Positions 38,415 to 42,522 of a stretch of DNA of 64,000 nucleotides are shown piece after piece. The notes below the pieces were generated by a model that was not told the origin of the DNA, ran no database searches, and worked only from the letters and a program-made list of their open reading frames with translations. Origin of the DNA: Escherichia coli (GTDB lineage Bacteria; Pseudomonadota; Gammaproteobacteria; Enterobacterales; Enterobacteriaceae); assembly GCF_024223415.1 (NCBI RefSeq), contig NZ_CP100500.1; one strand, 5' to 3'. Made by a program: the position numbers and the translations under genes. Position 1 is the first letter of the stretch. Each line of letters begins with the position of its first letter.

Positions 38415-39212
38415 ATGCTGGCAAAAGATAGGACTAACCTAAAGATTGAAGAAATACGGATGCATAAACATCATGAGATTCACAGGGTTAAGCCTCTTAT
38501 GCCAGCTTTATGTCGTATCCGTCAGGGAAAAAAAATTATCAATTGGGAGACGCATAGTCTAACTGTTGATAATAATCAGATAATATTATTTCCCTGTGGA
38601 TATGAATTTTATATTGCGAATTACCCAGAAGCAGGTCTTTATCTTGCAGAAATGCTTTATTATCCCATTGATCTAATTGAAAAGTTCCAAAATCTTTATG
38701 CGATAACCGATCAAATTCGTAACACGACAGGTTTCTGCTTACCTCAGAATCCCGAGTTAATATATTGTTGGGAGCAACTAAAAACATCTATTTCCCGAGG
38801 CTTCTCAACGCAAATTCAGGAACACTTAGCAATGGGCGTTCTACTTTCATTAGGAGCACATCATGTTAATTGTTTACTTTTATCAGATAGTAAACAATCA
38901 TTAATAAGTCGTTGTTATAACCTAATGCTATCCGAACCTGGAACAAAATGGACAGCAAACAAGGTAGCGAGATATCTCTACATTTCTGTTTCCACATTGC
39001 ATCGCCGTCTGGCAAGCGAGGGAGTAAGTTTTCAAAGTATATTGGACGACGTGAGGTTAAATAATGCGTTGTCTGCTATACAAACGACAGTAAAACCCAT
39101 CAGCGAGATTGCCAGGGAAAATGGTTACAAGTGTCCTTCTCGTTTTACTGAAAGGTTCCATAATCGTTTTAAGATAACACCAAGAGAGCTAAGAAAAGCG
39201 TCCAGAGAGTAA
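38415..39212 (+). CDS. ybcM: AraC/XylS-family transcriptional regulator YbcM (265 aa)
   Basis: C-terminal AraC HTH ([47 protein letters not shown]...[20 protein letters not shown]). Confidence 0.85.
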
Positions 39213-39503
39213 AAGTATTTTATGAAGGAGCAACAGCATAGATTTTTATTTTGGAAAATAAATACGGCATACTCAACCTATTGGAGCCTGAACAATCCGG
39301 TGACTTCTGCGCTAATCGGGGACGTTTATAAGCACATATAATTGATACTATCTTCCTCCATCACAATTTCAGAAATGCACGTGTGATTTTTTTGCATCCG
39401 GCGTTTGGACTATGTGGAGTTCAAGAGTGGGAAAGTTACAAGAGGTTGAGGGGATAATTAAAGGGATGCTTATGACATTAGATATCCGGATAGGTACGGA
39501 TAT

Positions 39504-39543
39504 CGTTGTTATTAAATCTAGTTCGTTGTTATTAAATCTAGTT
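39504..39543. repeat. Perfect 2-copy tandem direct repeat of a 20-bp unit (CGTTGTTATTAAATCTAGTT)
   Basis: Two adjacent identical 20-mers inside AT-rich non-coding DNA. Confidence 0.9.
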
Positions 39544-40175
39544 TATACGTTAAGATGCAGCTACAGCAGAAATTGCCACTGTTAATTTTTTCATCGTGAG
39601 CCTTTTATTTGAACTATTATTTAAAAATGATGTCACTGCACTACAAATATTCATCCAATCAATGAGATTATTTCAAGATGTAAGTTTTAGTTTCTCATTT
39701 AAATTGTGAAGTAGATCCCTATCTTTATCTGAACTGTTTCTATTGCACACAATGCATGACTATTTTGTGAACGAATATAAATTTGGTAGTTAAATTATAT
39801 TAAAGGTTGTTATTTATGATTGACTCATAATTTATTTATTTAATTTAAATAGCCTAGAAATAACCATGGAAATTATTTGCATGATGTTTGTTTAGATTTA
39901 TTAATGTAATTGAGGTGGTTTTATTTAATACGCAATATAGCGCCGCTTGATATTAGTTCTATTTTTTTTGCGTAAGATAGATGAGACAAACTGAGACGCA
40001 TAATGGTTTGCAAGGCTCTAATACTTTGATGTTGAGGATGTGATGGGGCATGTACGGGGCATAGTACAATGATGTCCATGCTGGTGTAGATAATCTCCAG
40101 GCTTATCCGGTGCGCCGTAAAACCCCGTCCTTCAGGGCAGGGATATAAGGCGTGGTTTTCCACCTGACCAGGTGT

Positions 40176-40595
40176 TTGCTGTTGTTCAATGTATTGGCGG
40201 ATGACGGATATTGGCGCACCTCCGCAGCTACTGGCAAAATAGCCAGGACTCCACAAAACGCCTTTGTAGTAATACCTGACTGCAATATCTGGTCGATCTC
40301 GTCGCAGTCACCTACCCGATACGCCTTTGAGGCTGTTTACCAGACTGGATATCGCCAGTTTGGGAGGATAGTTAATTAACAAATGGACGTGATCTGGTTC
40401 GCCATCCATTTCAACCAGTTCAGCTTCAAAATCAGCACATACATTTGAAAAGTAAGTGCGTAGTTTTTCTGTCGCGTCATGGTCAAAAATCTGACGTCGG
40501 TATCTGGTGACAAAGACCAGGTGAACATGCATCAGGAAAACACAATGCCTTCCACGCCGGATATCGGTTTCTTTTTTCACAGACCAAAGTATCAT
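40176..40595 (-). pseudogene. tnpA: tnpA (HUH Y1 transposase of IS200/IS605 family) interrupted by an in-frame TGA
   Basis: N-part MILWSVKKETDIRRGRHCVFLMHVHLVFVTRYRR...EPDHVHLL (HUH motif) ends at TGA 40308..40310; same frame continues LRRDRPDIAVRYYYKGVLWSPGYFASSCGGAPISVIRQYIEQQ (catalytic Tyr region). Confidence 0.75.
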
Positions 40596-40602
40596 TTGGC
40601 CT

Positions 40603-41811
40603 GTGAAACGACTACAAGCATTTAAATTCCAGTTAAGACCCGGTGGTCAACAGGAGCGTGAAATGAGGCGCTTCGCAGGCGCATGTCGTTTCGTTTTCAA
40701 TCGTGCTCTGGCACGTCAGAATGAGAATCATGAGGTCGGTAATAAATACATCCCTTACGGGAAAATGGCTTCCTGGCTGGTTGAGTGGAAAAATGCCACT
40801 GAAACGCAATGGCTTAAAGATGCCCCGTCACAGCCATTGCAACAGTCACTGAAAGACCTTGAGCGGGCTTACAAAAACTTCTTCCAGAATCGGGCTGCTT
40901 TTCCCCGATTCAAAAAGCGGGGACAGAATGATGTATTCCGCTACCCGCAGGGCGTTAAGCTCGATCAGGAAAACAGCCGTATTTTTCTGCCGAAACTGGG
41001 CTGGATGCGCTACCGGAACAGCCGTCAGGTCACGGGTGTTGTGAAAAATGTCACTGTCAGCCAGTCCTGCGGTAAGTGGTACATCAGTATTCAGACAGAA
41101 AGTGAAGTATCAACTCCGGTTCACCCTTCAGCATCAATGGTCGGGCTGGATGCTGGCGTGGCTAAACTCGCCACGCTGTCAGATGGCACAGTCTTTGAGC
41201 CTGTAAACAGTTTTCAGAAAAACCAGAAGAAGCTGGCGAGACTTCAGCGACAGTTAAGCCGCAAGGTCAAATTCAGCAACAACTGGCAGAAGCAGAAACG
41301 CAAAATACAGCGACTGCATTCCTGTATCGCAAATATCCGCAGGGACTACCTTCACAAAGTCACAACGACCGTCAGCAAAAACCACGCAATGATAGTCATT
41401 GAGGATTTGAAGGTCAGCAACATGTCAAAGTCAGCAGCGGGTACGGTCAGCCAGCCGGGGCGCAATGTCCGGGCAAAATCAGGTTTAAACCGTTCGATAC
41501 TGGATCAGGGCTGGTATGAAATGCGCCGCCAGCTTGAGTACAAGCAGCTCTGGCGTGGCGGTCAGGTGCTTGCTGTTCCGCCAGCGTACACAAGCCAGCG
41601 TTGCGCGTGCTGTGGTCATACAGAGAAAGAAAACCGCCTGTCACAAAGTAAATTCAGATGCCAGGTATGTGGATATACAGCGAACGCCGATGTAAATGGC
41701 GCTCGTAACATTTTAGCGGCGGGGCACGCCGTTCTTGCCTGTGGAGAGATGGTGCAGTCAGGCCGCCCGTTGAAGCAGGAACCCACCGAAATGATTCAGG
41801 CGACAGCCTGA
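40603..41811 (+). CDS. tnpB: TnpB (IS605 OrfB family RNA-guided endonuclease), apparently intact, 402 aa
   Basis: RuvC-I ([12 protein letters not shown]), RuvC-II ([11 protein letters not shown]), zinc finger CACCGH...CQVCG, RuvC-III ([10 protein letters not shown]). Confidence 0.85.
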
Positions 41812-41850
41812 ACGTAGCAGGGATCCTCGTCCTTCAGGGCGTGGAGGATG

Positions 41851-42522
41851 TCAACAAACAGGTTGAATTAACTCCGCGCCCTGGTTTTTGACATTACCTA
41901 CCGCGCGCGATACCGGGTGCCAGGTGAACTGGTTTGCTGGCACACAGCCGTTGGTAGCAATTTCTGATGCTTCTTTACCGCCAATCTCTTGCCGCATCCA
42001 TTCCTGTGCAGCTTCTGGCGACAGAACCAGCGGGCGGCGGTCATGAATATCTACCAGACCCTGGTCTGCTGCTGCAGTGACAATTAAAAATCCTTCGGCT
42101 TCGTCACCGCGCTCAAACGGTGTGCTACCTATCGCGGCCATAAAAACAGGTTGTCCATCAGCGCGATAGATAAAATAAGGCTGTTTTTTGTCGCCTTCTT
42201 TTTTCCACTCAAACCAGCCATCGGCAAAACAGATTGCCCGACCATGTTGCCAGAGCGGTTTAAACATACGACTGGTGGCCGCAGTTTCTACGCGGGCGTT
42301 AATCAGCGGCGGTTTATCCCACCATCCGGGAGCATATCCCCAGAAAACCGGATCCAGATGAAGGTGTTCATCACGTTCACTGAGCAGAAGAACTTTGGTT
42401 CCCGGCGCGACGTTGTATCTGCCAATGGGTTCGGGATCGTAGGGAATATCGCGTTCAATATCTTCCGCGAGAAGCGCAAGGTAATCTTCACGCGTTTGGG
42501 ATTGGGCAAAGCGTCCACACAT
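41851..42522 (-). CDS. yedK: SRAP-family abasic-site processing protein YedK (223 aa)
   Basis: MCGRFAQSQTREDYLALLAEDIERDIPYDPEPIGRYNVAPGTKV..., N-terminal Cys2 nucleophile. Confidence 0.9.
   Translation of the reverse strand: MCGRFAQSQTREDYLALLAEDIERDIPYDPEPIGRYNVAPGTKVLLLSERDEHLHLDPVFWGYAPGWWDKPPLINARVETAATSRMFKPLWQHGRAICFADGWFEWKKEGDKKQPYFIYRADGQPVFMAAIGSTPFERGDEAEGFLIVTAAADQGLVDIHDRRPLVLSPEAAQEWMRQEIGGKEASEIATNGCVPANQFTWHPVSRAVGNVKNQGAELIQPVC

Follow-up and report, generated by a model that had tools for sequence, protein, structure and literature searches.

The 64,000-nucleotide stretch of Escherichia coli DNA analysed here (contig NZ_CP100500.1 of assembly GCF_024223415.1; hereafter the window) contains the fli/yedK neighbourhood, in which the order of genes is fliE, an emrE/ybcL/ybcM-like block, an insertion sequence, yedK, yedF and yedE. 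The insertion sequence (40107-41854, + strand, 1,748 bp) is an IS200/IS605-family element of the IS609/insQ type; its paralogue in K-12 is named insQ in RefSeq, and we take the element itself to be the IS609 of ISfinder. It carries the nuclease gene tnpB (40603-41811, +) and a tnpA pseudogene (40164-40595, -), and its right end meets the convergent gene yedK (41851-42522, -). A preliminary description of this DNA, made by reading the sequence alone, had proposed that a TnpB guide RNA (omega or right-end RNA) overlaps the 3' end of tnpB and the right end of the element, and draws its guide from the 3' flank of yedK. It is this RNA, its guide and its target that concern us here.

The limits of the element were set by comparison with empty sites and by the limits of conservation in relatives. 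In K-12 MG1655 yedK is without the element and the junction sequence there is ...AATAATCTCCAGGCTTATCAAACAGGTTGAATTAACTCC, i.e. GGCTTAT|CAAACAGG with the insertion point marked, while the window reads ...CCAGGCTTAT on the left, CCGGTGCG...GGAGGATGTCAA across the element and CAAACAGGTTGAATTAACTCC on the right. A second pair of empty and occupied sites, at yfeD (K-12 empty site TTTATTTAT|GCTGATTC), agrees with the boundaries derived from yedK. A search with the TnpB protein yielded near-identical E. coli proteins only, and diverse loci were taken from a scan of genome contigs (one genome per species), which gave 51 loci with TnpB relatives at 28-94% protein identity, 44 of them alignable downstream of a conserved TnpB protein motif. 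These 44 independent elements, all of them from other genera, have the right end GGAGGATGTCAA in common, with the scaffold ending ...GTCAA in all but three, and from the next base onward their flanking sequences are unrelated. Since the base that follows TCAA is free to vary among relatives, the right end falls at 41854 and the element at 40107-41854, and the alternative junction TTATC|...TCAAC, allowed by a one-base ambiguity, was rejected in favour of TTAT|...TCAA. That an IS200/IS605 element ends beside yedK, as the preliminary description stated, is thereby confirmed. Immediately to its left stands TTAT (40103-40106, +), the target motif according to the empty sites and independent insertions, and the expected transposon-adjacent motif (TAM) for TnpB: TTAT or TTAC (in one case TTGAC) lies directly left of the element in about 20 independent insertions, and for elements of this kind TTAT has been reported as the most frequent left cleavage motif and TCAA as the most frequent right one (PMC9956272).

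The tnpB gene encodes a protein of 402 amino acids and is apparently that of an intact RNA-guided nuclease. The protein has the Pfam domains OrfB_IS605, Cas12f1-like_TNB and HTH_OrfB_IS605, is labelled an RNA-guided endonuclease in RefSeq, and matches ISDra2 TnpB (structures 8BF8/8EXA) over residues 3-376 with an E-value of 5.7e-55; in that alignment the three acidic RuvC residues (D/E/D) and the four zinc-finger cysteines correspond. Between copies of the gene the ratio of nonsynonymous to synonymous substitution rates (dN/dS) is 0.11-0.31, and against the other two E. coli copies 0.26-0.31. The situation of tnpA, which encodes a Y1 transposase, is different. An in-frame TGA (40308-40310), upstream of the region of the catalytic tyrosine, occupies a codon that is Leu in relatives; Pfam Y1_Tnp matches flank it on both sides, and the RefSeq annotation reads 'internal stop'. 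The preliminary description, whose guide-RNA interpretation is supported here, had overlooked this nonsense codon and with it the fact that this copy cannot excise alone. The same TGA is found in the K-12 ydcO copy, and neither in the yfeD copy nor in other genera; its presence in two copies implies that, once the mutation had arisen, a copy was mobilised in trans or gene conversion took place. The natural tnpA stop (40164-40166) is also altered, being CAG in the window vs. TAG in the closest relative, L002.

The predicted scaffold spans 147 nt (41708-41854, +), on the evidence of an RNAalifold consensus, covariation, a covariance model and synonymous-codon identity. On its own, the sequence folds somewhat better than its shuffles (z = -2.81). 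In an alignment of 29 scaffolds (A1), helices were proposed by RNAalifold, one of them was extended by hand, and pairs were then counted. The resulting consensus has 51 pairs in 8 helices, which on the + strand of the window include H2 (41708-13 with 41846-51), H3 (41716-21 with 41727-32), H4 (41738-42 with 41775-79), H5 (41746-53 with 41762-68), H6 (41786-87 with 41820-21), H7 (41790-801 with 41806-16, spanning the tnpB stop codon at 41809-11) and H8 (41824-32 with 41837-45). Across the 29 sequences 93.2% of the cells are paired, and sliding the 3' partners by 1-3 columns lowers this to 38.8-49.6%; both sides have changed in 19 of the 51 pairs (6-15 in the slid versions), and the covariation score is 0.249 (0.04-0.09 slid). 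None of 500 shuffles reached any of the observed measures. Compensatory changes occur in H3, H4, H5, H7 and H8. The structure belongs to the tnpB-sense strand, since 11 of its pairs are mainly G.U, and would be A.C on the opposite strand. The structure that could not be verified by eye in the preliminary description is thus real by both shuffled and slid controls.

Two further lines of evidence agree with the alignment. A covariance model (R1) was built from a second alignment (A2) of 20 relatives that included no Escherichia, Citrobacter or near-identical sequence; it matches the window at 41706-41854 on the + strand, over its full length, with 160.8 bits (E 1e-46), and its only other match in the 64 kb is a partial one of 7.9 bits to the left-end hairpin. 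In 22 tnpB genes, the last 20 codons have a synonymous-codon identity of 0.865, vs. 0.44-0.72 (mean about 0.58) elsewhere in the gene, as one would expect if constraint on an RNA were added to constraint on the protein. Between the scaffolds of the window and the K-12 copy, a single base in 146 is different. On the + strand, then, conserved structure covers the 3' end of tnpB and goes no further than the right end, in the place given for the RNA in the preliminary description, whose span of 41650-41870 was too generous on the 5' side; the guide starts at 41855. Two other pairings were tried. The helix 41685-41701 was left out of the RNA, as it has no compensatory changes and several stretches further upstream in the gene match or exceed it in synonymous-codon identity, and a UUGA:UCAA pairing of 41770-73 with the 3' tail was rejected, its upstream side varying without compensation.

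The guide is taken to start at 41855 because conservation is lost at this base, directly past the right end. With its length inferred from ISDra2, the predicted 16-nt guide is CAAACAGGUUGAAUUA (41855-41870, +), antisense to the 3' end of yedK; the corresponding DNA, CAAACAGGTTGAATTA, is the reverse complement of yedK codons 218-223 (LIQPVC). Preceded by the TAM, TTAT-CAAACAGGTTGAATTA occurs exactly in the empty yedK site of K-12 and not in the window; as one string, TTATCAAACAGGTTGAATTA, it reconstitutes the empty site. The only perfect match to the guide within the window is the guide's own site, which is preceded by GTCAA, not TTAT, and for this reason the occupied yedK site should be immune. 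At the level of the sequence match, then, the earlier suggestions that the guide derives from the yedK flank and is programmed against the empty site both hold.

The insertion also alters yedK itself: the TCA of the right end of the element serves as its stop codon (41851-41853), and the protein is extended by one Cys relative to K-12. The E. coli sites at yedK, ydcO and yfeD are alike in this regard, the element lying at the stop codon of a convergent gene, to which the right end (...GTCAA) gives a new in-frame TGA (window 41851-41854; L054 2712-2715; L055 2712-2715; L056 3177-3250). At yfeD the change is silent (GCA TAA to GCT TGA). TTAT is ATAA on the other strand and so contains a TAA stop, which may explain the persistence of harmless insertions at the ends of genes.

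We therefore regard 41708-41854 as probably the guide-RNA scaffold of an IS609-type TnpB, and some 16 bases from 41855 as its guide, a view based on comparative sequence analysis. Since no promoter is seen on the + strand inside tnpB, the RNA would most likely be excised from the tnpB transcript, as published for other TnpBs, and would then associate with TnpB. The sequence that this complex would recognise is TTAT and then CAAACAGGTTGAATTA, that is, the uninterrupted yedK site, a target that would exist only where the element is absent or has been excised. Cutting of the empty site would favour repair from an occupied copy and hence retention of the element. The excision that normally precedes this would require transposase supplied in trans at yedK, because the copy's own tnpA is a pseudogene.

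Several observations weigh against this view. The terminal hairpin (41824-41845, +; loop UUCA at -22..-19) has a U.U mismatch in the window copy where K-12 has an A-U pair, and the covariation in this hairpin is equally explained by recognition of the DNA by TnpA. Many of the aligned scaffolds are related, so that the shuffle control makes significance look greater than it is; for this reason the slid versions provide the fairer control, and their result is clear. The 3' tail has two candidate partners, 41708-13 (pairing with 41846-51, 99.4%) and the loop 41723-26 (pairing with 41849-52, 99.1%), and the choice between them is ambiguous, both sides being nearly invariant and showing no covariation. 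A scan for promoters and terminators found no sigma-70-like + strand promoter in tnpB and no terminator past the guide, with counts within about two standard deviations of those in shuffles, which makes the scan uninformative. No Rfam 15 family reached its gathering score in an E-value scan of the region and ten relatives. Lastly, given the tnpA nonsense codon, the yedK copy makes no excision product by itself.

The last point leads to the alternative that fares best, namely that the ancestor of this sequence was a functional guide-RNA gene, but that this copy is now inert and the element immobile, its features being inherited rather than maintained. The in-frame TGA and the changed natural stop of tnpA and the mismatch in the terminal hairpin would fit such decay, as would TnpB residue 341 (41623-41625), which is Glu in the window and Ala in every other aligned relative except L015 (CCGHT-A/E-KEN); this residue sits just past the first pair of zinc-finger cysteines. 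In addition, several O111 genomes have the tnpB of the yedK site split by IS1203 (an IS3-family element), so that this lineage, at least, can do without the nuclease. Against loss of function, the tnpB frame is open over its full length and retains its catalytic residues, its dN/dS against the other two E. coli copies is low and the scaffold has barely diverged from that of K-12 (see above), while the yfeD copy, free of the tnpA nonsense codon, could supply TnpA in trans. On balance we consider an inert copy unlikely.

A second alternative is that the pairing merely reflects the single-stranded DNA hairpins that TnpA needs at the right end, with no RNA involved. The ends of IS200/IS605 elements do have subterminal hairpins recognised by TnpA, G.T wobbles are tolerated in such DNA hairpins, and the left end carries a near-identical hairpin, CCCCGTCC-TTCA-GGGCAGGG (40123-40142, +), recognised on reading the sequence, kept in relatives and responsible for the weak second match of model R1. 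However, this terminal hairpin (about 30 nt) is all that the left end has in common with the right, where covarying helices reach about 140 nt inward, past the tnpB stop and into coding sequence (41716-41816), and the inner module resembles RNA families that are bound by TnpB. A purely DNA-level role is thus very improbable. The right-end hairpin probably has two uses, as the DNA hairpin bound by TnpA and, in the RNA, as the final stem. A third notion, that the structure stabilises the 3' end of the tnpB mRNA or mediates antisense regulation of yedK by read-through, without guiding a nuclease, may draw on the convergence of tnpB and yedK, the stop codon that the element provides and the lack of a terminator between the genes, but is scarcely credible given that conservation ends exactly at the transposon end whichever gene follows, that the same scaffold adjoins ydcO, yfeD and unrelated genes in other genera, and that there is no U-tract terminator.

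One further candidate was raised solely because the window lies in the fli region: TldR, a nuclease-dead, TnpB-derived transcription factor of which some examples are found beside fliC. It was rejected, as the RuvC residues are intact and both transposon ends are present. A TldR guide would moreover be expected to match a promoter, and the guide in the window instead matches the 3' end of yedK.

The preliminary description had named a search with Rfam-style covariance models as a check. That search stayed below threshold for every family, whereas model R1, as described above, recovered the scaffold; nevertheless, the strongest sub-threshold Rfam matches (RAGATH-18, HgcC and sot0042) all fall here and on the + strand, as resemblances rather than memberships. 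HgcC (RF00062), presumably a tnpB-linked family of TnpB guide RNAs, matches 41748-41867 with 19.3 bits (gathering score 50) and the same place in 7 of the 10 relatives with 20-32 bits (E down to 0.0013). Matches to sot0042 (RF02656) cover 41684-41845 with 14-22 bits (gathering score 88); the family is haloarchaeal, and sotRNAs are now counted among the guide RNAs of TnpB (PMC12558985). Both families have the same position and strand relative to tnpB as the RNA described here, and their terminal hairpin and GGAGGAnGUCA tail align with it, although they are archaeal families of TnpB-only elements, unlike the element in the window.

The match to RAGATH-18 (RF03064), at 41738-41781, scores 25.4 bits in the window and 30.9 in L038 (gathering score 44.9). 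RAGATH-18 is the core of the IS607 TnpB guide RNA (PMC11061315), and has been reported as specific to IS607 TnpB. The window has a similar module (41738-41779, +), in which the kink-turn core (CCUGUGGAG ... CGUUGAAGCAGG) accompanies an inner helix, 4 of whose 7 pairs covary; the kink-turn/E-loop flanks CCUGUGGAG ... CG(U/A)UGAAGCAGGAA surround the inner stem as they do in RAGATH-18. The likeness is limited to this one module, whose inner segment is 17 nt here vs. 44 in RAGATH-18. Furthermore, IS607 has a serine transposase and an RNA that lies wholly downstream, whereas the element in the window has a Y1 transposase and an RNA that overlaps tnpB. Y1-type elements of Enterobacterales, of a Janthinobacterium (Betaproteobacteria) and of Nostoc PCC 7120 also have the motif GCCUGUGGAG...CG(U/A)UGAAGCAGGAA at the 3' end of tnpB (window 41737-41781; L059 about 1897-2042; L038 3398-3441). 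A kink-turn module thought to be specific to IS607 may therefore be common, in diverged form, to Y1-transposase elements.

Among characterised elements, IS608 of Helicobacter pylori has a Y1 transposase and subterminal hairpins, inserts 3' of TTAC and has a right end whose last bases are TCAA. The element in the window resembles it on each of these points, with TTAT as the tetranucleotide 3' of which it lies; it differs in host, in sequence and in the arrangement of tnpA and tnpB, which are divergent, as in IS605, rather than co-oriented. The omega RNA of ISDra2, whose TnpB is homologous, likewise overlaps the tnpB 3' end and stops at the right end. Its last stem, with a UUUA loop at -20..-17, is followed by bases -5..-3 that pair with -103..-105 to form a pseudoknot (PMC10097598); a pseudoknot of this type is also a feature of Cas12 guide RNAs. 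Correspondingly, the RNA in the window has a last stem with a 4-nt loop (UUCA) about 20 nt before the guide, the same tail, UCAA, and a candidate for the same pseudoknot, as its tail could pair with the loop of an upstream hairpin. The two systems differ in motif (TTAT vs. TTGAT) and scaffold length (about 147 nt vs. 116 nt), in the extra kink-turn-like module of the window RNA, and in its tnpA, which is divergent and a pseudogene. When model R1 was run with filters off on ISDra2-like loci, i.e. Deinococcus plasmids (TnpB 81-82% identical to that of ISDra2) and one Nostoc locus, its best match was at the tnpB 3' end on the sense strand, if weak (15.2, 10.3 and 11.0 bits, E 0.001-0.04), and the similarity of the terminal parts can be seen by eye (AAUCACGCGACUUCAGUCGUGUGAGGUUCAA in Deinococcus, GAUCCUCGUCCUUCAGGGCGUGGAGGAUGUCAA in the window).

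The role proposed here for TnpB is that of Geobacillus IS605-family TnpB homing, in which the guide comes from the right flank, the vacant site is cut next to the TAM and the element is retained (PMC10055086, PMC10690162). Unlike the Geobacillus case, which depends on excision by TnpA, the copy in the window has an inactivated TnpA. In literature on IS609, insQ and ydcM with TnpB we found no study of the scaffold RNA; an IS609 TnpB was purified in PMC12781874, the text of which reports no result for its RNA. What we describe is an ordinary member of a well-known TnpB guide-RNA system and not a new system.

To the left of the element (38415-40106), emrE/ybcL/ybcM-like genes stand where K-12 has yedL (L001 6491-7080), and the window and K-12 share no more than about 17 bp past the yedK stop, so that a variable segment separates yedK from fliE, with the insertion sequence at its edge. 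An AT-rich stretch upstream of the element contains a 20-nt unit, TCGTTGTTATTAAATCTAGT, twice in tandem (39503-39542).

The distribution of the junctions in E. coli was surveyed in 5,426 complete genomes with 120-nt probes (at least 80% covered). The junction of the right end with yedK was present in 667 of these and the K-12-type empty yedK junction in 2,357, meaning that at least 43% carry the empty allele. The scaffold was found in 4,932 genomes, mostly adjoining ydcO, yedK or yfeD. The three E. coli copies carry three different flanks, and hence each has a different guide.

Since the mechanism is already known, what is gained is of practical and not of conceptual value. Scaffold, guide, motif and target are now annotated to the base for the TnpB element that is commonest in E. 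coli, an element whose RNA no curated family covers, and the natural occupied (667) and empty (at least 2,357) yedK genomes, together with a perfect target in K-12, provide a ready experimental system. A more speculative idea, to which we give little credence, is that an immobile copy whose tnpB and scaffold are under purifying selection could act as a stand-alone drive that cuts incoming empty yedK alleles. If this were so, an empty allele met via transduction, conjugation or recombination would be cut by means of the fixed guide, and the occupied yedK allele would resist replacement, or be copied in, without transposition.

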